DNA of 64,000 bases from an uncultured delta proteobacterium (lineage in GTDB: Bacteria > Desulfobacterota > Syntrophobacteria > Syntrophobacterales > Syntrophobacteraceae). Shown here one piece after another: positions 35,735 through 63,365 of the stretch (position 1 is its first letter; every line of letters begins with the position of its first letter). Made by a program: the position numbers and the translations under genes. The stretch spans positions 5,467 to 69,466 of the forward strand of contig CAWJQV010000016.1 in the NCBI GenBank assembly GCA_963844985.1, written 5' to 3'. The notes beneath the pieces are model-generated. The model was not told the DNA's origin. It saw only the letters and a list, made by a program, of their open reading frames with translations, and did not search any database.

Positions 35735-35946
35735 TTAACAGAACCAGCACATTAAGGTGGTGATGGCTCGTTATTGATAGCCGGAAGATATCTTGCCACA
35801 AGGTTGCATCCCACCAGAGGAAGTTCGTATAGAAAGTATGATCTGGAGGTAGCAAATCTTCAGATTGCCAAAATTTCACTGATCAGGAGAGCAAATGTTA
35901 GAGACTTTTCCTCAATCTGCCAGGCTTCGGTTTCGCAGCGGAACGG
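35735..35946 (+). repeat. junction repeat copy A (full length; further 3' homology to about 36135)
   Basis: TTAACAGAACCAGCAC ... CTTGCCACAAGG ... GTATGATCTGGAGG ... ATCAGGAGAG-caa-ATG ... GCGGAAC. Confidence 0.85.
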
Positions 35947-36264
35947 ATAATCATTCGGATGGGGTTAGCCCTGAACCGTCAACCCACGGTGTCTCTCGCC
36001 AGTGTGAATCGTCTCTTCAAAGGCAGGCACGATTGATGATATCAAAAAGGAATAGACTCAAGCCTTCAGCCGAATTGTGCATACAAGGTAGCTGTCGCCA
36101 GATTTACTCGCCGCCAATCAGAGAGCTGACCTCTACCGATTTGGGGCAAATCGCGACCTAGAAATGTTTGACGACGCTGCGGAGGTCGAGTAGGTTCCAG
36201 AAACAGGGCGAAAGAGAGTTTTCCCTCAATATAACACAATGATTTTTAGGAAAGGATAGAAAGG

Positions 36265-36732
36265 ATGCTCTATAAAATTGTTTTGAGTGCTGTGGCTTTG
36301 CTGCTTGCCTGTTCTTTCGGGTATGTCTCGCCGCGGAGGTCGGCGATACGGATGCTCACAGAGGAACTGCTGAAGTTCCAGGGCACCTGGGTCATGGTGT
36401 CGTCAGAAAAAAGTGGCAAGCTGGTGGCAGACGAGCGTGTGGACCGGACCAAAATCTTATATGAGGGAAAAACGGGATGGAAATTTGAGCCCAACCATCA
36501 TCCGGAACCTATAATCTTCGAGATTTTAGATATCGATACCTCAAAAGAGCCAAAGCAAATGCGTGCCATTGAAAAGAATGGACCCAGTATGGGCAAGACG
36601 CTTGTAGCGATCTACAGATTCGAGGGCCCCGATCAATACACGTTTGCTTACGACCCCAGTGGGTCCACAATACTGACGGAGTTTACCACTAAAGAAGGAA
36701 CAGAGCACATTCGTAAACCTGGAAGCGCGTGA
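36265..36732 (+). CDS. secreted lipocalin-like protein (TIGR03067-like domain)
   Basis: Signal peptide, then LKFQGTWVMVSSEKSGK ... LVAIYRFEGPDQYTFAY pattern. An AGGA motif lies upstream. Confidence 0.5.
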   Translation: MLYKIVLSAVALLLACSFGYVSPRRSAIRMLTEELLKFQGTWVMVSSEKSGKLVADERVDRTKILYEGKTGWKFEPNHHPEPIIFEILDIDTSKEPKQMRAIEKNGPSMGKTLVAIYRFEGPDQYTFAYDPSGSTILTEFTTKEGTEHIRKPGSA

Positions 36733-37676
36733 AGCCGTGAGATCCTTAATTGTTTCGAGTCGGGTATAGAGACTGTCTGATTTTTCCGCCAGCAGATCAC
36801 GAATGACCCCCACAATCGATATTCCATATAGGCAAGCGTTACGGTCTCGCTCCTGCTGCTGCCTCTTGTTCAGTATGACGAGCCCTCGCGCAGCATATCA
36901 ACCATGCATCGAGTGAAGAGGGACGCGCTTTGACATTAAACTATGTATGGCTCGGTATCTCGATCGTGATGCCAAAGTTGTGTGCGTCAAGTTCTGAAAA
37001 TTCGATTAAGGCATATGGCGCCTATTTCTTACTTTGCTTCCCGCGACAAGCAAGGAACCTAGCCGTGGAGGGCCGCCGAGAATGGGTCCAACCGTGACTC
37101 GCCGGAGGTGGCCCAAAGGCAGTGCCTTGAAACGAAAATCGCATACCAAACTTGCGCGCAAGTATCCGGGGGCCTTCATCACCCGACCTTTTATGCAAAC
37201 CCGATTATCTGCCACACTGAAAAGTGCAATTATCTTAACATCTTCAAGTCCTTAAGAGCAGAGGCAAATCGTTGAAAATATCCCATTGAAATCCTCACCT
37301 TTTTGATCGTCGATTTTGATCGAAGGAAGGCAGCTATTTACCCCAAGCGAACAGTCGAGTGTTTTTTGCTCCCAACTCCCCACAACACAACGACAACTCC
37401 TGATGATTTTTGTCATTCGTTGCCAAAAGATTGGCATAAATTCGGTTGACAGCATCCACATCGGGCGCTAGCGTAAATGACTTAAGGAGTAATTTGTTCT
37501 TCCTTTCAATATCTAATGGTTATGAAGGAAGGCGCAGGCTCCTTCCTATACAATTCAGAGAGGCATTTCCCCCTCTTGGTAAAGCTTTGAATCTTTAACG
37601 GGTTAGTAGAAACAATATGTAAGCAAATATACAATCGTACCGTGGGAGCCAATGTCGAGAAAGGAGGCTGATTCGC

Positions 37677-38881
37677 ATGGATAAAAGGATTTCTTCGTAT
37701 CGGGAGCTTGCCCTTTTTGGAGTGCTTGCTGCAACTTTGGTTTTGTTCATGCTGGTCCTGCCGGTGCCTCGCCAACTTATCAGGTACACAAACTTGTCTC
37801 AGACATTTCGGGACTTGCAGACAATTTCGATCCGAATCTCAAAATCCATGGGGGATTTCGTCCGGCCCAACCAGTCCTTTCTGGATTTCGGATAACCACG
37901 CCGGTGTTGTTACTCTTTACAATGGCAACGGCCAGCCCTTCCCGGTGGTAAGCCCCCTAGTCGTCACGGTTCCTCCGCCTTCAGGTGGAACCCCTCCCTC
38001 TACACCCACTGGACAAGTATTTAATGGAAACCTGGCGAGTTTTAAGATTAACGGAACTGCAGCGAGCTTTATCTTTGCGACGGAGGATGGAACAATCTCG
38101 GGTTGGAATTCAGGTTCAGGGACCAATGCCATCCGTACAGTAGATAATTCAGCATCTGGCGCGGTCTATAAGGGGCTTGCCTGGTAACAACGGCACCAGC
38201 GATTTTCTTTATGCCGCCAATTTTCACGCTGGGACCATTGATGTGTTCGACAGCCTCTTTGCACCTACCACCTTGGCTGGAAACTTCACCGATCCCAATC
38301 TGCCCAGTGGGTTTGCCCCATTCAATATCCAGAACCTGGGAGGGAAGCTTTATGTGACCTATGCGAAGCAGGATGCAACCGAACATGATGATGTCCCCGG
38401 TCCAGGCAATGGTTTCGTCAATGTTTTTGATTTGAACGGCAATCTTTTCAATCGTCTCATTTCTAATGGAGCCCTTAACTCTCCATGGGGATTGGCATTG
38501 GCTCCTACCAATTTCGGTGATTTCAGTAACACCCTTCTAGTCGGAAATTTTGGCGATGGACTCATTAATGCCTTCGATCCCGGTACTGGTGCCTTTCTCG
38601 GTCAAATCCAAGATGCTTGGAGAACTCCTATCGTGATTAAGGGATTATGGGGACTGAAGTTTGGCAATGGGGGAAATGGTGGTGATTCCCATACGCTGTA
38701 CTTCACGGCTGGAATTCCAGGTCCCTCTCCAGGCGCGGTGGAAGACCATGGGTTGTTCGGCAGCATCAAACCCGTCCAACCGGCGGTTGTCCCAGCATTC
38801 AACCATTGGGGTTTACCCGTGTTCGCAGTCCTTTTGCTCGCCTCGGTCTGTTGGGTCGTGAGAAGAAGGAGAAAGACATAG
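37677..38881 (+). pseudogene. TIGR03118-like secreted beta-propeller protein with an IPTL-CTERM-like tail; about 3 frame breaks
   Basis: LVSDISGLADNFDPNLK / NPWGISSGPTSPFWISDN / LYAANFHAGTIDVFD / NSPWGLALAP / GNFGDGLINAFD read across three frames. The tail is VPAFNHWGLPVFAVLLLASVCWVVRRRRKT. A strong AAGGAGG motif precedes 37677. Confidence 0.65.
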
Positions 38882-38909
38882 GCCTGATAATCCTGTGGAC
38901 TCCTCCTCT

Positions 38910-38943
38910 GGCAGGGTCAGCAATGGTCCTGCCTTTCTTCTTG
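38910..38943 (+). terminator. rho-independent terminator candidate
   Basis: GGCAGG-gtcagcaatggt-CCTGCC followed by TTTCTTCTT, 29 nt after the stop at 38881. Confidence 0.5.
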
Positions 38944-39017
38944 GCGAGTCGAGAGGGTGAATGGTAACCGACCAATTTCATCGATTCCGAGCGTTAACCA
39001 GCACAAAAGTCATTTAC

Positions 39018-39174
39018 TTAACAGAACCAGCACTTTAAGGTAGTGATGGTTCGTTACTGATAGCCGAAACATATCTTGCCAGAACCTTGAACTCGCAGGG
39101 ACAGCGGATTCCTTGAGGGTATGATTTGAACGTGGTGAATTCTCGGGATGTCCAGATTTCAAGGACCAGGAGAG
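39018..39174 (+). repeat. junction repeat copy B (full length)
   Basis: TTAACAGAACCAGCACTTTAAGGTAGTGATGGTTCGTTACTGATAGCCGAAAC ... CTTGCCAGAACC ... GTATGATTTGAACGTGG ... ACCAGGAGAG. Confidence 0.85.
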
Positions 39175-39668
39175 ATGCATGAAGGCCACCGGCTGCAAAA
39201 TACTCCCGACTATTTCGATCCAATCAGCCACCATTTTTCAAAGAACGACACACCCTGTCTCGGCTCCCCTCAATGATACCGGAGGTATCCACTGACCAGA
39301 AGACCCCACCTGATGGGCATTCCACCAGCATCATTTTCAAAGAGTTGTCGGCTCATCGATCCAGGCAGTACGCTCGTTTGCCTCCGAGGTGACGGGTATC
39401 ATTTCCAAGTCCACGGGTGACACGAGCAACTTAAATGGCCGAGCCGAAGTCACGAAGGACTGGCAGTGAATGTTAGAATTTGTCCCTCCCGTCCAGGACT
39501 CAGGCAACAGGAACGCATTCCTTGGGCCACGCGCGTTATTGGAAAACCTTGGGCTCGGGCCTTGTGGACTGAATAAATGTGATATTATCCGCATACTTGC
39601 ACAACATCAAAAAAAGTGCTTAGGTTTATGAGAAGTTCGACAATTTCAGCATTTAGGAGAAAGAAGAA

Positions 39669-40028
39669 ATGAATAAAGAGGCGGATACAGCAAATGAGAT
39701 GATCAAGCGTTTGGCATTGTCTTTGGATAGTATTTTTCAAAGGGCAGAGGAATTGAACGCCTCCTTTGAGCGCAGCCCAAAGCCGCGCCAGAGAAAGATA
39801 GTTGAGATATTACACAAGCATGACATTCCCGCATGCGTGGGACCGTTCTTTGATTCCTATTCCAGAATCAGCGCGGCCGGAGGGGATATTGAGCAATTCA
39901 GCCACATGATGGTAGAAAGGCTTTCTTCTTACCTTCAAGAAGACCCCTCCAAGGTTGCGATACGATTCAGGGAAGCGATTGCGGATTACGTTGAATTCAG
40001 GAGCCGTGACCTGGACGAAGGCCGCTAA
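39669..40028 (+). CDS. hypothetical protein
   Basis: 119-aa ORF preceded by AGGAGAAAG; no recognisable family. Confidence 0.35.
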   Translation: MNKEADTANEMIKRLALSLDSIFQRAEELNASFERSPKPRQRKIVEILHKHDIPACVGPFFDSYSRISAAGGDIEQFSHMMVERLSSYLQEDPSKVAIRFREAIADYVEFRSRDLDEGR

Positions 40029-40405
40029 AGCTTTAATCGCCATATCAGATGAAAGTCCCACGGGCATGGATGCATATATGGTCAATATGATGGCCACGCC
40101 TTCTTAGCCCTCCGGACCCCGGCAACAAAAACACGTGGCCGGGGTGATATGCCTTCTGTCACCAGTTCGCTAAGGGGGTCTTGCAAATCAAGTTATCGGA
40201 GTCTACCAGGACGGGCCAACAGAAATCGCCTTGGCGATCCCGGTTAATCCTGTGGGATTTGGGAAAGCAATGGTTTCGCTTGCCCATATTGCGTTATCCT
40301 GAAATCTTTTGTTGGTGGCCGAATATGATCCGCATGTGGTGGGTTTGATGATGGGTGGGTTCCGAAAGCCATAGGAGAGCTCAATGAACTTCGAACACCA
40401 CAGAA

Positions 40406-40687: not shown

Positions 40688-40716
40688 GATTAATCTAAAT
40701 CAAAGCGCGAAGGCCA

Positions 40717-42003: not shown

Positions 42004-42060
42004 GGCCGAACTCCCGTTGACGTGAGGGCTCGGTGGTCTTTGATCCACCCAACGTTCGCC
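42004..42060. other. attC-like imperfect palindrome (GGCCGAAC ... GTTCGCC)
   Basis: Terminal boxes GGCCGAAC / GTTCGCC with an inner GGTGG-n8-CCACC hairpin, between the genes 41537-41888 and 42124-42510. Confidence 0.35.
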
Positions 42061-42123
42061 TTCAACGGCACCGCCTTTGGCGCGTCCGCTGGACATTGTT
42101 GCTGGGCGACGGTCAGAGTCTAC

Positions 42124-42510
42124 TCATGACGGCGGGCTTTTTCCGAGCACTCGTTCAATCGCCGGCACAGCGTCCTCCGGACCGCGCACGAGGATGATCT
42201 TCGATCTCGGCGCGTTCGCGTGGATGATGTTGAGAACGCGATTGAACCAGACAGTGGTCTCTTCCGTCGCGGGGAAATTCACGGCGTCCTGTCCGTTGAT
42301 GTAGCCGCCGATGGCCACGCCATCGTACTCGGCTCGCTTCAGCTCCGCGACCAGCCGTGCGTCCCCAGCTTCATCGTTCGTCAGCACGAAGGTGGTCGCC
42401 TGGAACCCGAGCGAACGGAGTTTCTCTTGGACGGCGGCGGCGATCTCCGGATGTTTGCCGAACCCGAGGATGCGCCAACCCGTGGGGTGTGAAGAAGAGG
42501 CGATCTGCAT
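42124..42510 (-). CDS. hypothetical protein
   Basis: 128-aa ORF; no recognisable family. Confidence 0.4.
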   Translation of the reverse strand: MQIASSSHPTGWRILGFGKHPEIAAAVQEKLRSLGFQATTFVLTNDEAGDARLVAELKRAEYDGVAIGGYINGQDAVNFPATEETTVWFNRVLNIIHANAPRSKIILVRGPEDAVPAIERVLGKSPPS

Positions 42511-43604: not shown

Positions 43605-43668
43605 TCGCCAGAATGGATGTTTAAAAATCGAACAGTATGAATTGAAAGTTGCCATAACGTTAGGTGAC
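43605..43668 (+). repeat. junction repeat copy J (degenerate)
   Basis: TCGCCAGAATGG-n20-AGTATGAATTGAAAGTTGCCATAACGTTAGGTGAC aligns loosely with the repeat core. Confidence 0.4.
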
Positions 43669-44898: not shown

Positions 44899-45030
44899 CT
44901 TGCCATAAGGTCGAATCTGAGCTGGGGCACCTCTCATGAAAAGTATGATCTGGACGTCGTAAGGTTTCAGGGTATCGAGATTTCAGCCATCAGGAGAGCT
45001 GCGTGGAGTTTCCCCTTCTTCAGCCGAACG
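44899..45030 (+). repeat. junction repeat copy C
   Basis: CTTGCCATAAGGTCGAATCTGAGCTGGGGCACCTC ... GTATGATCTGGACGTCG ... ATCAGGAGAG-ctgc-GTG-GAGTTTCCCCTTCTTCAGCCGAAC. Confidence 0.85.
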
Positions 45031-45044: not shown

Positions 45045-45559
45045 TCACAGTGCATCTTTTGCCGGCATGAGTGGTACGCGTGTCGAGACAGCGTGTAATG
45101 CAATGTTGTGGAGCATTTCATTCACTGTGGTGCAGCAATCCGGCAGAATGCATACCTTGTACTTCTCTGCGGACTTCGAGATAGCCGTGTGAGTCACGCA
45201 GTTTTGAGTCATCATGCCGCACACAAGCAATTCATCGACCCCTAATTCAGAGAGCGTCTCTTCAAGATTAGTCTTCACGAAGCTGTCAGCAAACTCTTTG
45301 ATATAATGGGAGCATCGGGAGCAGCTTCAAGAATTCGTGGATGGATTTTCGCGCCGTCCGAGCCCTGGTTGAAAAATGGCGCAATCCCCATTTCGGGGTT
45401 TGCGATATGCTGGATGTGAATAATGGGAATGCCTTTCACTCTCGCCGCCTTGATCGCCTGCTCGATGTTGCTGAGCGTAGCATCCGTATTCCAGAGCGGA
45501 AACTTACCGCCTGGGAAATAGTCATTCTGCAAGTCAATGAGTAGTAGTGCCTTCTTCAT
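45045..45559 (-). pseudogene. isochorismatase-family cysteine hydrolase; frame broken near 45278
   Basis: KALLLIDLQNDYFPGG ... then (shift) FADSFVKTNLEETLSELGVDELLVCGMMTQNCVTHTA. Confidence 0.75.
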
Positions 45560-45673: not shown

Positions 45674-46090
45674 TTACCACCTGGTTAGTATGGCCCACAC
45701 CATGTTGGGCGAATGACCTTTGACGCGAACCATGCGCACCCACAGCAGCGTCATATGTTCCAGATGCAGCGCTTGCTCAAGACCTCCAACAATCGAGTGG
45801 CTCCCAGCCGAGCTGTTTGATCAAGTTACCAACTGTCTTCTTCGCGGATTCGTCCTGCCCGCACTACATCATCACTGGCTTGACGTTGGAATGAGGATAA
45901 GAGCTGTTCTCGAAATTCTCGAAACCGTTGATGGTGAAGGTTTTGCCCACCTTGGCCTCTGGAACAAGTTCCTGCACCATCTCCGACCCGGATTGACTGC
46001 AGTGAAAGCTGGGGGAACTCATCGAAGACCTTGTATCGCGTTTTAGAATAGACCTCGAAGCTCCAACTCGTGCTTTGAGGGTTCGGTTCC
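45674..46090 (-). pseudogene. F420-dependent NADP oxidoreductase-like fragment (5' truncated, at least 2 frameshifts)
   Basis: My own translation gives SGSEMVQELVPEAKVGKTFT ... CGQDESAKKTVGNLIKQLGWEPLD / VGGLEQALHLEHMTLLWV. Confidence 0.45.
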
Positions 46091-46119
46091 GCGCAACCTC
46101 ATCTCCAGTTAATCTTGGC

Positions 46120-47064
46120 CTACCTCGCTACGATGCGCAACCCTATGCTGATAGGATCAAAAACCAAGTGCATGCCTAGATGTTCAAAGTAGCGGCTTGA
46201 TCCGTAAATGATTTTCCACTGCGTGCGATCAAAGTCAAAATGCGCTTCGGCGGTGATCGCACCATCGGGCAGATTGCTGATAGTCGCGAGAAACTTCATG
46301 TCATGATGCATGCCACGGAGTTCAAGTGTGCCTTCCACTTTGAAATTGGGTGCACTCAAGGATTCACCAATTTTCCGGGCCGAATTAATCGTGAACCGGG
46401 CTGTTGGGAACTTCTCTGTGAAGAAAAAGTCATCCGATTTTAAGTGAGCAATGAGGACCGGCTGCCATTCGTTACCCTCCAAGTTCAGATTTTTTAGCGA
46501 GTGCATGTCGACCTCAAAAGTTCCGTTTAACTTGCCTTGCTGTATCTTGATATCGCCCCTCAATAGACGTAACGTGCCGTAGTGTATCGTGTTTGGGTTG
46601 CGCCCAGTCCACTCAATAATGCTCTGTTCAATGTCGACACTGTAGCTCCGGTCGTCCAATCTGAGGTGATCGTCCTCGTCTACAGCATCCGGATCATTAC
46701 CCGTCAGAGGATATCCGGCTTCTCTCCAGGCAGCCAGCCCTCCGGTGAGAGTAAACACCTTTGAATACCCGAGCCGCACAAGCTTTTCGGCTGCGGTGAC
46801 TGAATCATGGGAAGCCCTGCTTGAGCCGTACAGAACAATCTCCCGGTCACGATCGGGCACGATAGCCTCCACTTCCGAGGGGAAGACAACTTGAAAGACG
46901 CAGGCATTTTGGGCACCTGGCAGATGCCTCTTGTCGAATAGTTCCTTTAGCAAGGTGTCAATAATGATCAGATCTGTCTTCTGACTGATCTTGTCGTACA
47001 ACTCCTCCGCCGTGATCTTCGCAAAACTTTTCGTATTTTCCATCTTCTCCTCCTCCACGACCAT
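46120..47064 (-). CDS. rhodanese-homology domain fused to a YceI-like domain
   Basis: HLPGAQN ... LYGSSRASHDS ... LTGGLAAWREAGYPL (rhodanese fold without the active-site Cys), then TGRNPNTIHYGTL ... FPTARF ... GTLELRG (YceI-like). Confidence 0.7.
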   Translation of the reverse strand: MVVEEEKMENTKSFAKITAEELYDKISQKTDLIIIDTLLKELFDKRHLPGAQNACVFQVVFPSEVEAIVPDRDREIVLYGSSRASHDSVTAAEKLVRLGYSKVFTLTGGLAAWREAGYPLTGNDPDAVDEDDHLRLDDRSYSVDIEQSIIEWTGRNPNTIHYGTLRLLRGDIKIQQGKLNGTFEVDMHSLKNLNLEGNEWQPVLIAHLKSDDFFFTEKFPTARFTINSARKIGESLSAPNFKVEGTLELRGMHHDMKFLATISNLPDGAITAEAHFDFDRTQWKIIYGSSRYFEHLGMHLVFDPISIGLRIVAR

Positions 47065-47243
47065 CTGGCATACTGCTTTTCCGTATTATGTCCACCTGGG
47101 CTGGGACTGATGCTGTCAAAATGTCATTGAGCTTGTTCAGAAAGGTAAGCATAGTGAATGATCCCCGCCATTCCACTTTTCCTGCCTCTTCGATTTGCTT
47201 GCCAACGGGGTGAGATCTTCTCTTGCAAGCGACCATAACGGAA

Positions 47244-47287
47244 ATGATCTGGACGTGTTAAACTTTTGAGCCCTTGAGATTACAAGG
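47244..47287 (+). repeat. junction repeat copy D1 (partial; in tandem with D2)
   Basis: ATGATCTGGACGTGTTAAACTTTTGAGCCCTTGAGATTACAAGG. Confidence 0.7.
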
Positions 47288-47420
47288 TCCGCCAGAAGGT
47301 GGCGCCAGACCAGACACACTTCGCATAAAAGGTATGATCTGGAAACGGTGAAGATTTCGGCACTTCATTTTTCAGCTGAGGAGGAGAGGTATGCAAAGTT
47401 TCCCCTTTTCCAGCCGACCG
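47288..47420 (+). repeat. junction repeat copy D2
   Basis: CCGCCAGAAGGTGGCGCCAGACCAGACACACTTCGCATAAAAGGTATGATCTGGAAACGG ... GGAGGAGAGG-t-ATG-CAAAGTTTCCCCTTTTCCAGCCGACC. It is nearly identical to copy G over about 90 nt. Confidence 0.85.
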
Positions 47421-47484
47421 TTTGAGTTGAGGGGCGCGAAGCCGGCTTGCCGGCGTAGCGTCCCTCTCGAACGATTGGTTAGCT
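47413..47484. other. attC-like site (GCCGACC ... GTTAGCT) with a long imperfect inner hairpin
   Basis: Inner arms CGTTTGAG(TTG)AGGGGCGC / GCGTCCCT-CTCGAACG with a 3-nt bulge. It ends 10 nt from the stop of the gene 47494-49137. Confidence 0.4.
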
Positions 47485-47493
47485 GACGCTAGC

Positions 47494-49137
47494 TCATCGA
47501 ACCAGCTCAATCTCGCTTGGTCGCCACGTCTTGTCGAAGAACGGTTCCAGCGGGCTGTAGAGGCGCAGGAGGACAAAGTAACCCTTTTGGGGCACGGTCT
47601 GAATCCAGTTGCCGCGCTTGATCCCCTCAGGTTGCATTGGAGCGAAGTAGACCGTCGTGGAGCCGTCGGCGTTAGGCTCGGCGGCGGGCGATGGATAGCT
47701 CTGGCTGCCGGCGCGTGAGTAGCGCTGCGGGGTGTCGAGCATTGAGCGCGACTGATTGTCATAGAGCGTGAGGGACCAGAAGTTCGCCGCGGGAATGCCT
47801 TTCGGCAGGCTCACCTTGTAAGTCTTGGCGCCGTCCAAGTACTGCTTGTTCGCGTCCCGAGTGCCATAGAGATACTGTGAGCCGACGCCGGTCATACGCA
47901 TGGCCATGGCCGGCGACATGCCGACGTTGGAGTAGAAATAAAACGTCCGAACATCCAGCGTGCGGTAGCCAGTCTTCGGGAAGGGCTTGACACCTTCGGG
48001 AATACGTTGCCCATCCCGTACCGGCCCCTCGATGATAGGGATCGGCGTCTCGAACTCGTAGCCGCCGATGAACATCGGACTCACCCAGGCCGAGTCGGGG
48101 TAATACACCCAGCTTTGATCGCGCGGGTTCATGACGAGACTGCGAGCGGTGGCATTGGCCACCGCGACCGCTTCGGTGAGGATCTTCTTCATCCGGACAT
48201 CGGGGGCAAAGGGTTTGCCCTTGACGATCCCGATCGCGGCGAGCGGGCCCATCAGTTCGGGGTCGAGCGAGGTAGCCGGCTCCTGCTGGACGACCTCGTT
48301 GAGCATCTCGTAGAAGCTGAAGTCGTTGGGCGGAATGGTGTTGATTGCCCTACCGCTGCCCTCATGGAACACGGTTTCGGGCGACGGCGCGATCCGTCCG
48401 AGCCGAACCTTGCCGCTCAGGAACTCGGCGAGGGGCGTGCCGACCCCGCCCGCCTCGTATCGGTAGACCTTGGTGAACTTCCGGATCATCTCGGCCGCCG
48501 GCTTCGGGCTGTTGTCCTCAAGGAACATACGGCCGAACCACACGACGCGAGTGGTTTGAGCGCGAGCCGTGAAAAACCCGCCCTCCGGCAGCGGACCGTC
48601 GTAGCCGGGCGGCACGATCAGGTACTTTCCGCCAAGGCCGCGATCGGGGCCGGGCAGGCCGAGGTCGATGACCCAGCGGTACCAGTCGTCATCGATGGCG
48701 CCGAGAAGTCTCGGAGGCACCTCCAGCACCATGGGCCCTTTTGTGAGATCGAGGAAACCCACGACGTAGAGCGTGTCCGCGTTGGCCGTGAGGACCAGCG
48801 ACTTCGAATCCATGAAGTCGGACCAGACAACGACCTCGTTATCTTTCACTCCGATGTCAGCAAGGCCTTTGTGGAAGGCCTGCATGCTGACGCCCTGGTA
48901 AGTGTTTACGAACGCTTCGAAGGCGTGGGTGAAGTCGAGGTTGTCATATACCTTGGCGAGCGTGTCACTGCTCGGCATGCCGTCCTTGAATTCGAGCGTG
49001 CCGATCCGGCTCTCGACCCTGTCGGGTGTCGTGATCGAGGACGGAATTGCGCTGGCCGACTGGGCGGTGGCCAAGCCGGGGGCTGCCATCAGGGCGCAGG
49101 TTGCGAGGATGGCAAATGGCCTCGTGAGCTGATTCAT
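47494..49137 (-). CDS. secreted DUF1254/DUF1214-family protein
   Basis: Signal peptide, then DDWYRWVIDLGLPGPDRGLGGKYLIVPPGY and NFWSLTLYD signatures. The start is placed at MNQLT. Confidence 0.75.
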   Translation of the reverse strand: MNQLTRPFAILATCALMAAPGLATAQSASAIPSSITTPDRVESRIGTLEFKDGMPSSDTLAKVYDNLDFTHAFEAFVNTYQGVSMQAFHKGLADIGVKDNEVVVWSDFMDSKSLVLTANADTLYVVGFLDLTKGPMVLEVPPRLLGAIDDDWYRWVIDLGLPGPDRGLGGKYLIVPPGYDGPLPEGGFFTARAQTTRVVWFGRMFLEDNSPKPAAEMIRKFTKVYRYEAGGVGTPLAEFLSGKVRLGRIAPSPETVFHEGSGRAINTIPPNDFSFYEMLNEVVQQEPATSLDPELMGPLAAIGIVKGKPFAPDVRMKKILTEAVAVANATARSLVMNPRDQSWVYYPDSAWVSPMFIGGYEFETPIPIIEGPVRDGQRIPEGVKPFPKTGYRTLDVRTFYFYSNVGMSPAMAMRMTGVGSQYLYGTRDANKQYLDGAKTYKVSLPKGIPAANFWSLTLYDNQSRSMLDTPQRYSRAGSQSYPSPAAEPNADGSTTVYFAPMQPEGIKRGNWIQTVPQKGYFVLLRLYSPLEPFFDKTWRPSEIELVR

Positions 49138-49466
49138 CTTCGTGTCTCCTCTGTTTTCGGATTTCAAGTATCGAAGAGGCCTCAATTCCTGGGCACATCG
49201 CTCGGGGCGAGGCTTCGGCCGGCTAATCGCGGCGTTGACCCGTGGAACGAAGATTGCGGAGCCGCAGGGGTATGCCAGCGAGTGACATCGGTGTCGAGTG
49301 GCCTGGTTGGCGCTGCCAAGGCGGTGTCGGCCAAGGTAGGCACCGATATGGGAATTGAGCAGTCAGCCTGCACCATTCGTTCGGTATTATGGACCAATTG
49401 GCCCTGGGCTTCAATGTCTGAATGATAATGATAGCCGCCTAACCATGCGATGGGAACTTGCTACGT

Positions 49467-49566: not shown

Positions 49567-49888
49567 ATATCTGGAATCGATCGACTACGGGGCCAGCAAC
49601 GCGATACAAGGCAGCTGTCGCAACTTATTGCAGGCCGATTACAGAACTCTATCACCTCCGTGATGCCTCTGTCCATCGAGTTAGCCGACCATTTACCGAG
49701 AGAGTGAATCTTCATGAGCAGTGCTCACGGAAGGGTTGGCAAATTAGAGTTTGTTTCGGTTCCTGACTTGCAAAGAGTCACGAAGCATGCCGAGATAGGA
49801 ACCGGATGAGCTGAGAGGCTCACGTCCAGATCTGCGCGGGCGTCGGGGTGCGATTCCCCAGCGCACTCTAGTATGTTGATGAAGACCA

Positions 49889-53353: not shown

Positions 53354-53480
53354 CTTGCCACGGTGGTGAAACGGCAGCCTGCCTCGATTTACTATGCACA
53401 TGATTTGGAAGTGGTAACTTTCCAAGACGTCGAGATTTCAGTCATCAGGAGAGAAACGTGGAGTCTATCCTCCAGCCAAC
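53354..53480 (+). repeat. junction repeat copy F
   Basis: CTTGCCACGGTGG ... CACATGATTTGGAAGTGGTAACTTTCCAAGACGTCGAGATTTCAGTCATCAGGAGAG-aaac-GTG ... CCAGCCAAC. Confidence 0.8.
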
Positions 53481-53536
53481 ATAGCCATCACCGGGAGCCA
53501 TCTTTATCGGCGATCCGGTGCATGGCATGGTTAGGC
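53474..53536. other. attC-like site AGCCAAC-ATAGCCAT-CACCGG ... CCGGTG-CATGGCATG-GTTAGGC
   Basis: 63 nt, nearly fully paired arms with two extra bases on one arm. GTTAGGC abuts the stop codon of the gene 53539-53955. Confidence 0.55.
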
Positions 53537-53538
53537 AA

Positions 53539-53955
53539 CTACTTTGCCTTACACTTGTATACGTAGTTCGAACTCGTGCCTTTAAGCGGATAGTCCTGAT
53601 CGTTAAGATCGAGCCGGAAGGTAATCTCTACGTCGCGACACCCGTCATGTTTGATACCATCCGAGGTGATCGTGACGTCGCGTTCACAGCTCAGAAGAAT
53701 CCCCCCATCTGAGCGAGATAGGTTTTGGATTTTTACAACGACGTTTTCCCCACGAGCCTCATATATAAACTCGGACTGCCCTGATCCACTTACCCCGATA
53801 TGATCAACCTTCCATCCGGCGGGTCTAAGCAGCACGGCTTTGATTTTATCAGGCCCACCAGCACCGGTATTGTCTTGGGCATAAGCCGTTGGTATTGTTT
53901 GGAGCGAAGAAAAACAAAGAACACAGGAGATGGCAAGAAAAGAATACAGTTTCAT
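53539..53955 (-). CDS. secreted hypothetical protein
   Basis: 138-aa ORF with the signal peptide MKLYSFLAISCVLCFSSLQTIPTAYA. Confidence 0.45.
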   Translation of the reverse strand: MKLYSFLAISCVLCFSSLQTIPTAYAQDNTGAGGPDKIKAVLLRPAGWKVDHIGVSGSGQSEFIYEARGENVVVKIQNLSRSDGGILLSCERDVTITSDGIKHDGCRDVEITFRLDLNDQDYPLKGTSSNYVYKCKAK

Positions 53956-54530: not shown

Positions 54531-54657
54531 CTTGCCAGAAGGTGGCGCCAGACCAGACACACTTCGCATAAAAGTATGATCTGGAAACGGTGAAGATTTC
54601 GGCACTTCGTTTTTAAGCAAGAAGGAGCTGTGTGGAGTTTCCCCTTTCCATCCGAAC
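54531..54657 (+). repeat. junction repeat copy G
   Basis: CTTGCCAGAAGGTGGCGCCAGACCAGACACACTTCGCATAAAAGTATGATCTGGAAACGG ... AAGGAG-ctgt-GTG-TGGAGTTTCCCCTTTCCATCCGAAC. Confidence 0.85.
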
Positions 54658-54845: not shown

Positions 54846-55884
54846 GCAAAGTGGGTATGCACTTTACTCAACCGGCCGAGTAGCGTAGCATGTGCTCGTG
54901 GAAGAGCAAAGACACCCGATTTCCGGCATTGATTATCCTGGAACGTTCCAGGAGTTTGAGGAATGGTTTAGTGGCGAAGATGCCTGCCTCGACTACATTG
55001 CCAAGCTTCGGTGGCCAGATGCTTTCTGTTGCCCCAGTTGCCGAGACACCACGGAAAAGCCCTCTATGATGGGGCGAGGCCTCTTTCTTTGCCGAAAATG
55101 TAAACGGCAAACATCTGTAGCTGCGGGGACACTGTTTCACAAGACCCACAAACCCTTGCGAACTTGGTTCCTTGCCATGTGGTTCGTGACAAGCCAAAAG
55201 CATGGAGCTAGCGCTCTCGGTTTGAAAAGGGTTCTCGGACTTGGCAGCTACAATACAGCGTGGATTTGGCTTCATAAGCTGCGTCGTGCGATGGTGCGCC
55301 CTGGTCGAGATCAATTGACCGGTGCCATTGAAATTGATGAGACATATGTTGGAGGCCGTGGGACGAAGGTCCGTGGGCGAGGTGCTGAGCGAAAGTCGAT
55401 TGTTGCCATAGCAGCAGAAGTCCGGGGACGCGGTCCTGGCAGAATACGCATGTCTGTTGTTGCCGATGTGTCCGCAATGAGCCTTCACAAATTTCTTTTG
55501 GATAACGTGGAAATGGGAGCTGAAATCCGGACTGACGGCTGGAACGGGTATAAAGGAATCGAGAAACTGGGCTTCAATCATATTGTGACAAATCTCGCTG
55601 CAAGTGGAGATCCTGCTCATGTGGTTATGCCTCGTGTTCATCGTGTTGCATCTCTGTTGGACCGTTGGTGGCTTGGGATTCACCAAGGGGCTATCCGTCC
55701 GCAACATCTTGACTACTATCTTGATGAGTTCACATTTCGGTTCAATCGCCGCGCCCCCAAAGCCCGAGGTCTACTCTTCTACCGCCTGATGGAGCAAGCG
55801 GTGGATTGCGCCCCCAGGCCCCGCCAGATGATCGTAGGGGGTGGACCGGTGGATGGTTGAGCTAAGTGCATACCCACTTAATGC
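54846..55884 (+). mobile_element. IS1595-family (ISXO2-like) insertion sequence
   Basis: Terminal inverted repeats GCAAAGTGGGTATGCACTTTA (54846-54866) and TAAGTGCATACCCACTTAATGC (55863-55884) flank the transposase gene. No clear target duplication was seen. Confidence 0.8.
54892..55860 (+). CDS. IS1595-family transposase
   Basis: 322-aa ORF with an N-terminal zinc ribbon (CPSCRD ... CRKCKRQTS) and the ISXO2-like DDE domain (IEIDETYVGG). Confidence 0.85.
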   Translation: MLVEEQRHPISGIDYPGTFQEFEEWFSGEDACLDYIAKLRWPDAFCCPSCRDTTEKPSMMGRGLFLCRKCKRQTSVAAGTLFHKTHKPLRTWFLAMWFVTSQKHGASALGLKRVLGLGSYNTAWIWLHKLRRAMVRPGRDQLTGAIEIDETYVGGRGTKVRGRGAERKSIVAIAAEVRGRGPGRIRMSVVADVSAMSLHKFLLDNVEMGAEIRTDGWNGYKGIEKLGFNHIVTNLAASGDPAHVVMPRVHRVASLLDRWWLGIHQGAIRPQHLDYYLDEFTFRFNRRAPKARGLLFYRLMEQAVDCAPRPRQMIVGGGPVDG

Positions 55885-56039: not shown

Positions 56040-58058
56040 ACTTGAGTTTTCCAAATCATCCTCTGCGCAGGTCGTATCCAATGGAAAGTACGAGGATAAT
56101 TCCGTAAGGGCACGCTCGCCGGGGGTCAGGTATACTTCCCGAGCCCGAAGGCTTCAAAGAGGCGGCTCTGGACCGCGGACAGGGCAGTTACTTTCTTCAC
56201 CGTTTTCCCGTCCCCGTAAACGAGGATGATCATGGTAATGTCTTCCAGTTCCTCGATGAGTACCTTGCAGCTCATGCCGATGCCGTTTTCTCTCGCAAGA
56301 AACTGGAGCAGCTTGAGGAGAAGCAGGGCTAGGACACAGACGAAGGCATGGACCCTGATTTTGGAGTCCGTCCAGTGATAACCCGGGTGATAGGCCACAA
56401 GATCCCGGTCTTTGAGGTGATGGAAGCCGTCCTCGATCTGGCATCCACTTTTCTGGTAGCCGAGAATGGTTTCCGTTGTGGCGTCCTTGATGTTGGTAAA
56501 GACGATTTTCTTTCCGAAGGTGGCCTTTTTGGCGCGGACCTCGGAGCGTTTCCGCTGGAGACTGAACATGTTCTTCCAGCCGTTGTGCCAGACCCTGAAG
56601 TCGTGGAATCGCAGGGCTTGGGAACTACCGACTTTTTGGGTTTTGAGGAAGGTCCGCATCTGAGCCTCAACTTCCTTGGTGGGCTCCTTGGCAATCATCT
56701 CGAAGAAGGCTTTGGCCTCCTTCATCACTCGTTTCATGTGGAACTCGAAGATGCGCTCCTGCCGTTTGGCGGTTGCCGGGTTGTAGGTGAGAATAACCGT
56801 TCGCTCAGCGCCAAAAACCTTCTTCGTCGTGCGATGGACTTTAAACTGGCCAAAGTTGTCCGTGTACCGGCTCAGGGCAATGGCGGTAAGATCCGCATGC
56901 TGGCTGGGAGTAAGGGATCCTACGAATTGGATCTGAAAGCCCTGCCCCTCAAGGGCGGAAAAATTCTTCTGCGAGTTGTTCCCCTTGTCGAAGACGAGCA
57001 CCAGACTCTCGGCTTTCTTCGCCACCTCATGGTAACGGGCGGTGAGTTTCCTTACGGCCGTGGGAAAGAGAGTCGCATCGTTTTGGTGCCCGCAGTAGAC
57101 GCCGTGGAAGATGGGAATTCCGAGATCGCGAAGCACTGCCAACTGCAGCCCCACCTGTCGGTTGTTGTCCCTGCCCTCCTTGTTCTTCCCAAACTGAGAG
57201 AGGCTGTTCTCCGTCTCCGGCTGGCAGAAATTGTAGAAATTGGTGGTATCATAGAGCACCGCGTCCAGGAGGAACCCAAATTCCTTGATGAGGTTTTTCC
57301 AAAGTCCCTTTTCAATGGCTTCGATCTTGGAATCGTCCAGGACGGATTCGAGTTCGTCGATATCAAGTTTTTCATTGGGGGAAAGTCCCCGGCTTTCCTT
57401 TTCGCTGCGGATTCGGGCTTCGCTGATGAGTTGGTCATAGGCGTACCAGAATGCCTTGCTGTTGAGCTTTCCGGGATTCACCTTCTGAAGTTTCGAGAGG
57501 ACCGTCTTTTCGTACCACCTGCCCATGCTCTCCTTGGAAGTGTGATTTCCGACCCGGTTGATGGCGCCTATAAGGATGAAATCAGAAATGGAAATGCCTC
57601 CCACCTCCCCTGGAGCTACTTCGCTTATGATGTCTCTGAGTCCAACCCTTTCGGCCACTTCAAAAAGGGCCACGGGCAGTCCGAATTCCTTCTTCTTGAG
57701 CTCGACCGGATCGTAGAGATTCTCCCTGTCGAGAAGCTTCTTAAGGACGGTTTCGGCGGGTCCAAGGTAGATCTGTTCATTGACGACACGGCTCTTACCG
57801 CTCCCTTTGGTCTTGCCGCTGGCATCGGGGTCGATCTTGACGCGGTGCGACCTGGAGTAATAGTAGTAGCGCTTTTTCCCGCGCCGTCTCTCAACAATCT
57901 TGCCTGTGAATGCAGTCTCGTTAGTCATGTATTGCATTATACTGGATATAAGCATGCTATGCAAGCAAATAATGCACAATATTTATGACCTTACGGTATA
58001 AACCTCGGCGCAGCAAGCAACGGGGGGCATCGGATGGTCAATTTTGGAAAACTCAAGT
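56040..58058 (-). mobile_element. IS1634/IS4-like insertion sequence with long terminal inverted repeats
   Basis: Outer IRs ACTTGAGTTTTCCAAA (56040-56055) / TTTGGAAAACTCAAGT (58043-58058), plus inner matching CCGTAAGG(G/T)CA blocks about 60 nt in from each end. Confidence 0.7.
56126..57979 (-). CDS. IS1634-family DDE transposase
   Basis: 617-aa ORF (likely start MTNETAF at 57928) with KKRYYYYSRSH ... QIYLGP at the N-terminus and YDTTNFY, VFDKGNNS motifs. Confidence 0.8.
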   Translation of the reverse strand: MCIICLHSMLISSIMQYMTNETAFTGKIVERRRGKKRYYYYSRSHRVKIDPDASGKTKGSGKSRVVNEQIYLGPAETVLKKLLDRENLYDPVELKKKEFGLPVALFEVAERVGLRDIISEVAPGEVGGISISDFILIGAINRVGNHTSKESMGRWYEKTVLSKLQKVNPGKLNSKAFWYAYDQLISEARIRSEKESRGLSPNEKLDIDELESVLDDSKIEAIEKGLWKNLIKEFGFLLDAVLYDTTNFYNFCQPETENSLSQFGKNKEGRDNNRQVGLQLAVLRDLGIPIFHGVYCGHQNDATLFPTAVRKLTARYHEVAKKAESLVLVFDKGNNSQKNFSALEGQGFQIQFVGSLTPSQHADLTAIALSRYTDNFGQFKVHRTTKKVFGAERTVILTYNPATAKRQERIFEFHMKRVMKEAKAFFEMIAKEPTKEVEAQMRTFLKTQKVGSSQALRFHDFRVWHNGWKNMFSLQRKRSEVRAKKATFGKKIVFTNIKDATTETILGYQKSGCQIEDGFHHLKDRDLVAYHPGYHWTDSKIRVHAFVCVLALLLLKLLQFLARENGIGMSCKVLIEELEDITMIILVYGDGKTVKKVTALSAVQSRLFEAFGLGKYT

Positions 58059-58599: not shown

Positions 58600-58760
58600 T
58601 TAACAGAATCAGCATCTTAAGGTGGTGATGGCTCGTTATTGATAGCCGGAAGGTATCTTGCCAGAAGGTCGAATCTGAGCTGGGGCACCTCGCATAAAAA
58701 GCATGATCTGGACGTGGCAAATTTTCAGGACGTCGAGATTTCAGCTATCAGGAGAGGAGA
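58600..58760 (+). repeat. junction repeat copy H (full length)
   Basis: TTAACAGAATCAGCATCTTAAGGTGGTGATGGCTCGTTATTGATAGCCGGAAGGTATCTTGCCAGAAGG ... GCATGATCTGGACGTGGCAAATTTTCAGGACGTCGAGATTTCAGCTATCAGGAGAGG. Confidence 0.85.
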
Positions 58761-58787
58761 GTTGAATTGGGGGTTGTGAACTTTCAG

Positions 58788-58839: not shown

Positions 58840-59132
58840 GACAGTGGGGCTAATGAGACCGTCTGTCTCAATACCCGGTGGGTCTAAAGGATTCGCATTG
58901 CCTTCCCCATGTCGCCCCAAGCTACCATTGGATAGATTCCGGAGCATCTCGATACATCAAAACTCGCCATTTGCTCTTCGCCAAAACTTATCATGCTCCA
59001 GTCACACCCCCGCGGGCCAAAAGCAAATCTGTCTCCTGAAGGGTGGCGGAGTTGCGGATAAGGTATCAATTATTTCGATAACCTTATTGCTATGAACACT
59101 GCGATGCTTTATATACAAAGGTTACATTTTGG

Positions 59133-59159
59133 CCGCGGGGAAACCCCTGTGGTTTTTTT
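59133..59159 (+). terminator. intrinsic terminator-like hairpin 25 nt upstream of the ABC-F start
   Basis: CCGCGGGG-aaa-CCCCTGTGG followed by TTTTTTT. GGAG lies 10 nt before the ATG at 59184. Confidence 0.5.
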
Positions 59160-59183
59160 ATTTCAACATGGAGTCAAAAAAGC

Positions 59184-60821: not shown

Positions 60822-60910
60822 TAAATGTTGAGCCCTGTCTCTGGAATGCTTCATTTCTTCCCTGGTCATGTTTCCAAATTGGAACACGACCAGTGGCCTG
60901 ACAGTTACTG

Positions 60911-61627
60911 TTGGTGCTCATGAAACCTTGGGTGTTACTCGACGCTGCGCGGGCACCCCGTGACGAGGGGGAACTGAGACTATACCGGCGGGGTGAGGAA
61001 TTCTCCATCAGGGTCGGCAACCTTGAACTCATGAACAGTCGCGTCCATGGGTCGGAAGAAGCGCTTGGGAAGCTTGCTTGTGCAAGGATTGCAGACCGCC
61101 CCCGGCCTCGAGTCCTGATAGGCGGACTGGGTATGGGCTACACCCTGAGCGCCGTGCTGCATGGACTTAGCGCTCAAGGCCAGGTGATTGTGGCCGAACT
61201 GATACCGGAGGTGGTGGCGTGGAACCGCGGTCCCCTGGGGATCCTTGCCGGCCATCCGCTCCGGGACGACCGGGTCATTGTACGCGAAGTCGATGTTGCC
61301 CGGATATTGCGTGCGGAGCAACGTGCTTATGATGCCATCCTGCTGGACGTCGACAATGGCCCCAAGGGATTGACCAGGAATGGAAATGACTGGCTCTATG
61401 GCCATGGTGGCTTGAGAGCGGCTTCCGCGGCATTGCGGCCCGGAGGTATACTGGCGGTATGGTCGGCCGGTCCTGATCACGCATTCAGTGATCGTCTGCG
61501 AAAGACCGGTTTCAAGGTGGAGCAGGTTCGCGTGCGGGCGCGCGGTGCATGTGGGGGAGCGCGACACACCATATGGATTGCCGGGAGTGCCGCACAAACG
61601 GCAGAGCAAGCGTCCCCGCCCCGTTGA
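60911..61627 (+). CDS. spermidine synthase-like class I methyltransferase-fold protein
   Basis: VLIGGLGMGYTL, DAILLDVDNGP and GGILAVWS motifs. Confidence 0.65.
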   Translation: MVLMKPWVLLDAARAPRDEGELRLYRRGEEFSIRVGNLELMNSRVHGSEEALGKLACARIADRPRPRVLIGGLGMGYTLSAVLHGLSAQGQVIVAELIPEVVAWNRGPLGILAGHPLRDDRVIVREVDVARILRAEQRAYDAILLDVDNGPKGLTRNGNDWLYGHGGLRAASAALRPGGILAVWSAGPDHAFSDRLRKTGFKVEQVRVRARGACGGARHTIWIAGSAAQTAEQASPPR

Positions 61628-61766
61628 CTGTTCGCCATTATAGGCTGGCCTCGTGCCTGAAAAAAACCGTCGCCATCACGACCCATAATCTTTTTCTAAG
61701 ACCTTTATCAATGACTCTGCATCAAAGCTGCGGGGCTTATCAACTTACCAGGAGCAACTCTTAAAT

Positions 61767-63179
61767 ATGTCATTTACAACCCTCGGCCTTTCGGCCGAAC
61801 TACTTCATGCCATTGCCGATCAAGGCTACAGCAAACCAACTCCCGTTCAGAGCCGGGCAATCCCTGTTATCCTTTCAGGAAAGGACATCCTGGCCGGTGC
61901 TCAAACCGGCACGGGTAAAACAGCCGGTTTCGCTCTGCCGCTTTTGCAGCTCTTGAACAACCGCAGCAGCACAAAGGTAAAGAATAGCGTGCGTGCTCTG
62001 ATACTTACCCCAACCCGTGAGCTTGCAGCTCAGGTCGAAGAGAGTGTGGCGGCCTACGGAAAGTACCTGCCGTTGAAATCGGGGGTCATCTTTGGCGGTG
62101 TAAAGATCAATCCGCAGATCGGCCAACTCCGCCGAGGCATCGATATTCTGGTGGCAACCCCCGGGCGTTTGCTTGACCATGTTCAACAACGGACCGTGGA
62201 TCTCTCGAGAGTCGAGATATTAATTGTGGACGAAGCGGATCGTATGTTGGATATGGGATTTATTCGGGATATCCGCAGAATACTCACCCTGCTGCCCGCA
62301 CGGCGACAAAACCTGCTCTTCTTCGCCACCTTTTCCAATGACATCAAAGCACTTGCCGAAAATTTATTGAACTCCCCAGTCCTGATTGAAGTGGCCAGGC
62401 GCAATACCGCATCGGAGACGATTGAACAGTTGATTCATCCCGTGGATCGCACCCGTAAGCGCGAGCTGCTTTCTTTTCTTATCGACTCCCAAAAATGGCG
62501 GCAGGTCCTCGTATTCACCCGAACCAAACACGGCGCCAACAAACTGACCAAGCAACTTGAGCGCGATGGAATAAGTGCGGCGGCCATCCACGGCAACAAG
62601 AGCCAGGCGAACCGAACCCGGACGTTGGCGAACTTTAAGCATGGCGATGTCCGTGTGTTGGTTGCTACTGATGTTGCATCACGAGGGCTCGACATCGAAC
62701 ATTTACCGCATGTGGTAAATTTTGAATTACCCAGTGTGTCTGAAGATTATTTGCACCGAATCGGCCGCACCGGACGTGCCGAGCGCGAAGGAATTGCCAT
62801 ATCACTCGTCTGTATTGATGAGCGCGAGCAATTAAAAGATATCGAACGTCTACTCAAGTGCACAATCCCCCAGGAAATCGTTGAGGGATATGAGCCCGAC
62901 CCGTCAATAAGGGCCGAACCCATTCTCAGGGGCGGAAATAATCCAAATCAGCGCCAGGGCCGGAATTCTCTGCCCGGCAAATTTTGGAGCAACGAGGACA
63001 GTCCCAATCCCATTGGCAGTCGAAAAGGCAGCTTGGGCAAAAAGCGCTTTCCGGAAAGCTCCAAAAATAAAGAACCGGTGCGCGGACGCCAGGATCTCTT
63101 GAGAAAGCACGCGACGAAAGCACGCCGGACACCGCAGGGCTGCGGGACACCAAAACATGATCGCCCTTCGGACAGGTAA
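61767..63179 (+). CDS. rhlE: DEAD-box ATP-dependent RNA helicase (RhlE-like)
   Basis: Q motif, [29 protein letters not shown]-equivalent and HRIGRTGRA motifs, with a basic C-terminal tail. Confidence 0.9.
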
Positions 63180-63256
63180 GGCTACGCTATCCCACCATCG
63201 TATGTAACAAATCTTTGGGGTAGCCGCCGGCACCGGCTCAGAGAAAGGTCACACAG

Positions 63257-63365
63257 CTTGCCACAAGGAAAAACCTGCGGCAGACCTCGATTTTGCGAAT
63301 GTATGATCTGGACATGGCAAAGATTTTGGCCATCGAGATTTCAATGGTCAGGAGGAGGAGAGGAA
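63257..63365 (+). repeat. junction repeat copy I
   Basis: CTTGCCACAAGG ... TGTATGATCTGGACATGGCAAAGATTTTGGCCATCGAGATTTCAATGGTCAGGAGGAGGAGAGG-a-ATG. Confidence 0.8.

Follow-up and report, generated by a model that had tools for sequence, protein, structure and literature searches.

The window analysed here is a stretch of 64,000 nucleotides (nt) from an uncultured delta proteobacterium of the family Syntrophobacteraceae (GenBank assembly GCA_963844985.1, contig CAWJQV010000016.1, positions 5,467 to 69,466), and the subject of this work is a family of short interspersed repeats that lies in its accessory gene island. The G+C content of the accessory region is 49-54% versus 55-59% in the core operons, and its genes are mostly on the minus strand. 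The island proteins include metallo-beta-lactamase-fold, extradiol dioxygenase, rhodanese-YceI, DUF1254/DUF1214 and Kup proteins, and the region also contains small open reading frames (ORFs) without Pfam matches, plus-strand ABC-F and DEAD-box genes and two transposases (IS1595 family and DDE_Tnp_1).

A profile hidden Markov model (HMM) of the repeat family was built from 87 distinct members and the whole window was searched with nhmmer. The model matched 10 copies with E values from 3e-24 to 8e-10, all on the plus strand between 35.8 and 63.4 kb (two-sided p ~0.002 for one strand); neither the minus strand nor the interval 1-35 kb gave a match. A strict IUPAC pattern matched seven copies in the window versus none in 100 shuffles, and the plus-strand family (35.7-63.4 kb) was also recovered by a direct-repeat search together with reading of the sequence. 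The initial annotation of this DNA, which was made from the sequence alone, had described a single co-oriented family confined to the accessory region, and both statements are borne out. Ten of the copies that it listed are supported by the model, but a degenerate one placed at 43605-43668 is not (E>1 and poor alignment). Its tandem pair, D1-D2, is real, although the first member is a near-complete copy at 47198-47290 and not the short segment 47244-47287. The copies of the window are 61-85% identical to one another. The repeats and their modules are listed below; E values are those of nhmmer, and loci outside the window carry L numbers.

35735-35791 (+): optional 5' module of copy A, TTAACAGAACCAGCAC...GATAGCCGGAAGATAT, aligned with B, H and L006
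35792-35891 (+): core copy A, 100 bp, full length, E 1.9e-17
39018-39074 (+): optional 5' module of copy B, from the module alignment
39075-39174 (+): core copy B, E 2.9e-24
40279-40385 (+): degenerate copy X, below the HMM threshold, seen by eye in alignment and sequence
44899-44998 (+): core copy C, E 2.7e-20
44999-45029 (+): type-a 3' extension of C, GTGGAGTTTCCCCTT..CAGCCGAAC, with 15 nt between its end and the stop codon of convergent gene 45045-45278
47198-47290 (+): core copy D1, E 2e-17, profile positions 1-93, without the last 7 nt and fused to D2
47291-47386 (+): core copy D2, E 2.4e-11
47387-47485 (+): type-a extension and imperfect palindrome after D2, abutting the stop of gene 47494-49185(-); same block in L098
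49467-49566 (+): core copy E, E 3e-21
49567-49630 (+): type-b 3' module of E, ATATCTGGAATCGA...GCGATACAAGGCAGCTGTCGC, aligned with A and 9 other loci
53354-53453 (+): core copy F, E 3.6e-21
53470-53541 (-): imperfect palindrome after F, GCCTAAC...GTTGGCT, of attC-like shape and immediately following the stop codon of gene 53539-53955(-)
54531-54626 (+): core copy G, E 7.6e-10, with a type-a extension and then a hairpin as far as ~54716
58600-58656 (+): optional 5' module of H, from the module alignment
58657-58756 (+): core copy H, E 1.4e-22
58700-58712 (+): example of the central box in H, GC^ATGATCTGGA, from the conservation profile; by junction mapping, the position of IS91-like insertion in other genomes
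63200-63256: palindromic module upstream of I, common to L001
63257-63354 (+): core copy I, E 1.6e-21

Core and modules of the repeat

All-against-all BLAST showed that the shared unit is sharply bounded, running from CTTGCC (anchor -46) to CAGGAGAG (anchor +54), and that the length of this core is 98-100 nt in all 87 distinct copies. The core consists of two halves of fixed length, a variable left half of 46 nt that starts with CTTGCC and occurs in several strongly diverged subtypes, and a better conserved right half of 54 nt that begins with ATGATCTGGA and ends with CAGGAGAG. Their junction is an invariant central box, GT^ATGATCTGGA in the family consensus. The most conserved positions form four boxes with constant spacing (CTTGCCA, (G)TATGATCTGGA, GAGATTTCAA and CCAGGAGAG), and the ends of the core, CTTGCCAG and CTCTCCTGG, are weakly inverted, with matches at 5 of 8 positions. 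Judged by eye, the two halves are mostly linked by subfamily with few exceptions (L056 and L070). Free reassortment of the halves was considered, and this linkage gives no support for exchange at the center.

Optional modules adjoin the core on both sides. The 57-nt 5' module that had been annotated in A, B and H proved real by alignment and is also present in L006, L067 and L086. The type-a 3' extension, GTGGAGTTTCCCC..CAGCCGAAC, which is followed by an imperfect palindrome, occurs after C, D2, F and G and in at least 12 loci. The type-b 3' module, ATATCTGGAAT...GCGATACAAGGCAGCTGTC (in A and E, ATACAAGGYAGCTGTC), is the one that copies A and E had been said to share; it proved real and recurs in at least nine or ten other loci. 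Palindromic units of ~60 nt with the ends CTGTACGTAAC...GTTACGTACAG can adjoin the core at its 5' or its 3' end and in both orientations.

The family extends beyond this genome. The strict pattern identified 20 loci among one-genome-per-species contigs, all of them in metagenome-assembled genomes (MAGs) of Syntrophobacteraceae, 'delta proteobacterium' or Desulfomonilaceae, as well as 90 metagenome loci, 7 of which are chance matches. Copy F is 92% identical to L002 and copy E is 91% identical to L008, while copy B together with 430 nt of flank (39004-39610) forms one block that is 93% identical to metagenome locus L067. The subfamilies are old, since copies within the window resemble one another no more than they resemble those of other genomes. 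Where a locus has two copies, they are always co-oriented.

The leading idea of the initial annotation was a structured RNA with a 10-bp hairpin conserved through compensatory change, followed by a Shine-Dalgarno-like sequence and a start codon that open short ORFs. The hairpin, ATCTGGACGT/ACGTCGAGAT, can indeed be drawn on the consensus, as can alternative CTGGA/TCCAG pairings beside AGGAG, which are no better supported. Nevertheless, a structured cis-regulatory RNA or riboswitch is hardly credible. In the alignment of copies, 74% of the hairpin cells are paired, which equals the shuffled expectation, and there is 1 compensatory pair versus 2.4 expected, so that covariation does not exceed that of shuffles. 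With 87 sequences pairing is 74% on the plus strand and 78% on the minus strand, and the common variants GGA->GAA and GAG->GAA break hairpin pairs. The RNAalifold consensus fold has an energy of -2 kcal/mol with 21 sequences and of 0 kcal/mol on both strands with 87, and the core folded as single-stranded DNA is no better than its shuffles (mean z -0.18). No Rfam match at E<=5 in 35-64 kb overlaps any copy, in agreement with the earlier statement that the family could be assigned neither to Rfam nor to a classical insertion sequence (IS) end. The RNA would also lack a downstream gene.

The predicted short ORFs fared no better: there is no substantial ORF after AGGAG, many copies have no start codon, the conserved nucleotides downstream fall into differing frames and conservation of the core has no 3-nt periodicity. 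Three further candidates were rejected. On the minus strand one frame is open in the consensus, but there is no 3-nt periodicity and copies differ by indels of 1-2 nt; CsrA-type GGA sites fail at the middle GGA, which is not conserved; and in a pairing of the 5' and 3' termini or a pseudoknot, changes on one side are uncompensated on the other. The repeat is ~100-bp non-coding DNA, and not an RNA structure, that occurs interspersed in Syntrophobacteraceae and their relatives among the Desulfobacterota. A tempting riboswitch-like reading is thus replaced by a tested one, in which the repeats are DNA signals of mobile-element biology.

The core and an IS91-family element

A Pfam survey of 148 neighbouring ORFs revealed three tyrosine recombinases. 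No Y1 transposase is among the top 25 of the 138 families matched by these ORFs, a ranking in which a single match would not show. Locus L020 has a tyrosine recombinase at its end, and locus L026 has a complete one that is divergent from, and adjoins, a half-core whose left half has been replaced by other sequence. The homologues of the L026 recombinase form a very large family of 281-amino-acid proteins, many of which recur, on up to 28 contigs. The neighbourhoods of four homologues were fetched, 36 contexts in all on contigs long enough to show the next gene. That gene begins 12-16 nt after the recombinase in 36 of 36 contexts and has the domains Zn_Tnp_IS91 and Y2_Tnp wherever Pfam matches were recorded. 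It encodes a Y2 HUH transposase of 402-406 amino acids, and the whole IS91-family element measures ~2.56-2.6 kb. The same two-gene architecture of recombinase and transposase is annotated on a RefSeq plasmid (NZ_CP125298.1).

Alignment of copies of the element defined its limits. The body starts with GAACTAAACGCTTCGCG and ends with ...GCTTAGTTCATGAT-N50-CGCCTATTTCAT; it has subterminal inverted repeats, ATCATGAACTAAAC and GTTTAGTTCATGAT, and a CGCTTCGCG palindrome near both ends, and TTAGTTC lies beside the left-end junction. At the borders of IS bodies that are 100% identical (L121-L130, and L131-L134 with three in one genome), flank identity drops abruptly to ~65%, and all similarity is lost 40-55 nt further out. 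The left flank ends with CAT at 18 of 18 sites and with ATCAT at 13 of them, while the right flank contains TGGCA(A/G)(G/T) 38-53 nt out at 11 of 14 independent sites.

At five loci (L026, L098, L111, L112 and L117) the flanks of the element are recognisable halves of the repeat found in the window. The left flank of the occupied site corresponds to the right half of the core in reverse complement, CTCTCCTGG...CCAGATCAT, and the right flank corresponds likewise to the left half, ...TCTGGCAAG. Joining of the two flanks in silico rebuilds the core, which nhmmer detects with E values of 8e-14 (L111), 8e-7 (L112) and 2e-4 (L117, spanning the junction), whereas IS-internal controls gave no core match. 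The element sits at GT^ATGATCTGGA with no bases duplicated, the left junction reads ...ATCAT^GAAC in the five occupied sites, and the direction from recombinase to transposase is always that of the minus strand of the core. The sites of the other subgroups of the element are sister repeats with the same arrangement, CTCTCCT/CTGCCCT ... ATCAT ^ ... TGGCAAG.

We think it probable, with modest confidence, that the core is a specific, orientation-dependent insertion site of an IS91-family element and that the window contains ten or eleven such sites, empty and co-oriented, at the island's joints. The sudden loss of identity where identical IS bodies end means that the half-cores predate the IS copies now seen, and the element would have inserted, time and again, into members of a repeat family that already existed. 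The core may be recognised as DNA by the recombinase and/or the transposase that the element encodes and would provide a safe intergenic insertion site, with the extra tyrosine recombinase as an obvious candidate for choosing the ATCAT^ site. The repeat itself may owe its spread to hitch-hiking with gene blocks, or it may have moved as a non-autonomous relative. Its co-orientation could result from the strand-specific single-strand chemistry of such elements combined with the uniform gene orientation of the island. The initial annotation had also proposed a miniature element that targets attC-type hairpins or a recombination accessory site. A mobile-DNA insertion or recombination site is the part of these proposals that stands, but the partner appears to be an IS91-family element rather than an integron, and the link to hairpins is partial and depends on subfamily.

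Elements of the IS91 family insert at a short target in a specific orientation without target duplication and possess subterminal palindromes; they form single-strand circles, and their one-ended transposition mobilises adjacent DNA (PMC13181058, PMC10288648). The insertions described here seem to fit this HUH rolling-circle behaviour in their orientation specificity, short target, absence of duplication and end hairpins, and in the single-strand intermediates that it involves (PMC10288648, PMC13181058). The partner element resembles IS91 and ISCR (insertion sequence common region) elements in its Y2 HUH transposase (Zn_Tnp_IS91 and Y2_Tnp), its single orientation, the CGCTTCGCG subterminal palindromes at both ends and the TTAGTTC near the left-end junction (PMC13181058). 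It differs in that insertion is at ATCAT^ within a 100-bp repeat and not at any CTTG or GTTC, and in that an upstream tyrosine recombinase takes the place of orf121; in the window, the repeats stand without the IS.

IS elements that insert into intergenic repeats are known from other lineages. IS1397/ISKpn1 and IS621 insert into repetitive extragenic palindromic (REP) sequences, and ISRm elements insert into Rhizobium-specific intergenic mosaic elements (RIMEs). A lineage-specific repeat that serves as an IS91-family insertion site would resemble these systems. Like REP sequences, the bacterial interspersed mosaic elements (BIMEs) and RIMEs, the present repeat is short, non-coding, intergenic and lineage specific, lies mostly beyond the 3' ends of genes, and is a mosaic of optional modules, palindromes among them, into which an IS is inserted at one defined position and in a fixed orientation. 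In contrast, its core is 100 bp long, non-palindromic and unfolded, no REP-associated tyrosine transposase was seen, and the partner belongs to the IS91 family with an extra tyrosine recombinase and not to IS3 or IS110. The palindromic unit of REP/BIME measures 20-40 nt and is associated with such a transposase; assignment to this class was rejected on the grounds that the core is not palindromic and palindromic modules are only optional neighbours. The pneumococcal BOX, enterobacterial repetitive intergenic consensus (ERIC) and Neisseria Correia repeats are likewise ~100 bp long, intergenic and modular, with a defined orientation and old subfamilies, but they fold or have terminal inverted repeats and TA duplications, and we know of none that is a docking site of an IS91-type element.

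Several observations weigh against an insertion-site role for the core. The window contains no IS91-like gene, end or end remnant, and the link is drawn from other genomes. Only five occupied sites have half-cores that clearly belong to this family; the HMM does not score the sister repeats, and uninterrupted sister-family sites were not found among the loci collected. The ATCAT^ junction differs from the CTTG/GTTC target of studied IS91, and the right-end flanks start with varied bases. No orthologous pair of an empty and a filled site was found, and insertion into a pre-existing repeat is deduced from the drop in identity. The sequences give no sign of recent amplification of the repeat in the window. 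Finally, the model does not account for the optional modules or for the tendency of cores to face convergent genes, which is described below.

A different account of the half-cores is that the repeat resembles a miniature inverted-repeat transposable element (MITE), consisting of the two outer termini of an IS91-like element that became joined and are moved in trans by its enzymes. An IS flanked by exactly two core halves gives the anatomy of a deletion derivative, and the sharp borders, fixed length and weakly inverted ends of the core agree with it. This origin nonetheless seems unlikely to us. Identical IS bodies carry different half-cores, so the half-cores were not copied with the IS; the flanks have no target duplication, no near-identical copies exist within a genome, and the subfamilies are old and common to several genomes. 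A classical MITE was rejected as well, with ends that match at only 5 of 8 positions, no flank duplication, no fold and copies that are only 61-85% identical. The core is possibly an old non-autonomous relative of the IS91-like element, and cores may have been mobilised in trans, may be ancient joined termini or may only have hitch-hiked with gene blocks.

To our knowledge, the role of the tyrosine recombinase that lies upstream of the transposase in many IS91-family elements has not been established. The position of the IS at one exact point of a dedicated 100-bp repeat leads to a testable hypothesis, that the recombinase performs site selection or integration.

Gene context, hairpins and block joints

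The gene beyond the 3' end of the core is convergent with it in 49 of 66 cases, while the gene on the 5' side has no preference (36 vs 31). Copies with the full 57-nt 5' module (A, B, H, L067 and L086) all have a co-directional ORF downstream, at a distance of 370-860 nt, and the long form may have a different role or context. These five copies speak for plus-strand transcription of the repeat, either as a small RNA gene or as a promoter or 5'-leader module that is portable. A TATGAT box and an AGGAG motif are present in the repeat, and the repeat copy of L020 has a fluoride riboswitch (2311-2375, Rfam RF01734, 39.9 bits) 160 nt downstream on the same strand. We regard a promoter, leader or small RNA gene as very improbable, however, since most copies run towards the 3' end of a convergent gene, there is no ORF or conserved start codon after AGGAG, and there is no conserved RNA fold or terminator. 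Moreover, no conserved sigma-70-type -35/-10 pair is present in the copies, a consensus scan having matched D2 only, and inspection for sigma-70, sigma-54 and extracytoplasmic function (ECF) sigma promoters yielded no consistent -35/-10 pair.

A downstream flank that folds at z<-2 is seen with 13% of the copies, versus 5% of control windows. In the window, significant hairpins follow F (z -3.9, -15.7 kcal/mol as single-stranded DNA), G (z -2.9) and I (z -3.0), whereas five other downstream candidates, including the D2 palindrome (z -0.75), are not significant. The earlier claim that the 3' ends of the copies run into attC-like palindromes thus holds for F, G and I but not for the other five. 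An energy scan of the window for long hairpins did not separate the candidate sites from GC-rich coding DNA.

These hairpins bring to mind a cluster of attC sites lacking integron-integrases (CALIN), that is, an integron-like cassette array in which the repeat would be a conserved extension of recombination sites beside attC hairpins. As in integron attC arrays such as the Vibrio cholerae repeats (VCRs), co-oriented lineage-specific repeats are found between small accessory genes, and blocks are common to several genomes. Some neighbouring hairpins have RYYYAAC/GTTRRRY-like ends beside stop codons, as in the GCCTAAC...GTTGGCT hairpin after F and similar ones after G and I. A block at 42051-42500, common to L074 and L049, ends with ...GAACG|TT on the gene strand, and the best NCBIfam match of the L026 recombinase is 'integron integrase' (TIGR02249, 228 bits). 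This match, however, is below the cut-off of 265 bits and in two stretches, and the recombinase belongs to the IS91-family element. No tyrosine recombinase was found in the window (Pfam on 20 ORFs; tblastn) and no IntI was found. An attC is an imperfect palindrome of 57-141 nt that folds as a single strand; the core is not an imperfect palindrome and does not itself fold, the hairpins are optional and join either end of the core in either orientation, simple (crude) R''/L''/L'/R' box scans detected no attC in the window, and block joints are at the ends of the core and not at GTT. An integron-type array is accordingly improbable.

Comparisons of loci revealed that homologous gene blocks break preferentially at the outer ends of the core. 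Upstream flanks differ up to |CTTGCC in four pairs of loci (L012/L087, L019/L110, L043/L108 and L056/L085), and the rhodanese block at 46021-47194, which is common to L055, ends 3 nt before D1. Downstream flanks differ from CAGGAG(AG)| onwards in L004/L110, in L037/L106 and in copy X versus L043, where homology stops exactly after GGAGAG of copy X and the 3' end is the block boundary. L110 is a chimera that matches L004 on the left and L019 on the right, with its cross-over point within the core. In the accessory island of an uncultured peat/wetland lineage, the repeats show where exchanged gene blocks join, and as such they are useful landmarks for annotating these islands and for understanding why MAGs fragment there.

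The tetranucleotides CTTG and GTTC, which are the target and cleavage sequences of IS91, are found at mosaic joints. Cores start with |CTTGCC (e.g., at 44899, 47198 and 53354), and the type-a extension ends with GAAC beside a hairpin (45021-45029, 47411-47419 and 54649-54657), which reads hairpin-C|GTTCGGCTGG on the gene strand. Their occurrence at these joints is not accounted for by the mapped insertion point of the IS.

The cores could also be double-stranded recombination sites of the att or dif kind for the IS91-linked recombinase, with strand exchange at GT^ATGATC and with directly repeated cores bounding blocks that can be excised, exchanged and inserted. We give this little credence; if it were true, it would constitute a cassette system that resembles an integron array without IntI or a folded attC.

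Minor features of the island

Several other features were noted near the copies. About 230 nt after copy E, at 49797-49866 (+), lies a sequence similar to group II intron domains V/VI (Rfam RF00029, 33.1 bits versus a gathering score of 40), which has two non-canonical domain V pairs and is absent from other type-b copies. An ORF-less group II intron was rejected as an explanation, with a match that is sub-threshold and limited to the flank of E and no match to domains I-IV. A conserved non-coding block of ~180 nt upstream of A (35552-35735, +; 72% identity) and a second block of 57 nt (37068-37124, +; 86% identity) have counterparts in L006 (2947-3184); neither block has an Rfam match. Within the core-operon half, 4461-4727 is 70-77% identical to L013 3355-3622, L086 38-259 and L078 3577-3770, all of which are located just downstream of type-b copies.

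The two transposase genes of the island lie between copies G and H and are unrelated to the repeat-linked IS91-like element. One is an IS1595-family transposase with a Zn ribbon and a DDE domain (54892-55860, +), and the other is an ORF of 617 amino acids (56126-57979, -) whose DDE_Tnp_1 match is weak and sub-threshold. Beyond copy C, the adjacent ORFs at 45045-45278 and 45275-45559 (-), of 77 and 94 amino acids with a 4-nt overlap, look like one gene split by a frameshift; the gene was judged isochorismatase-like by eye only. A gene for a WYL/WCX-domain protein (31444-32217, +) lies where the core operons give way to the accessory island. At Rfam gathering thresholds the sole match in the window is a tRNA at 6479-6551, and a tandem array of ~14 heptanucleotide units, CTGCTCA/CTGCTTA, is found at 23108-23214.

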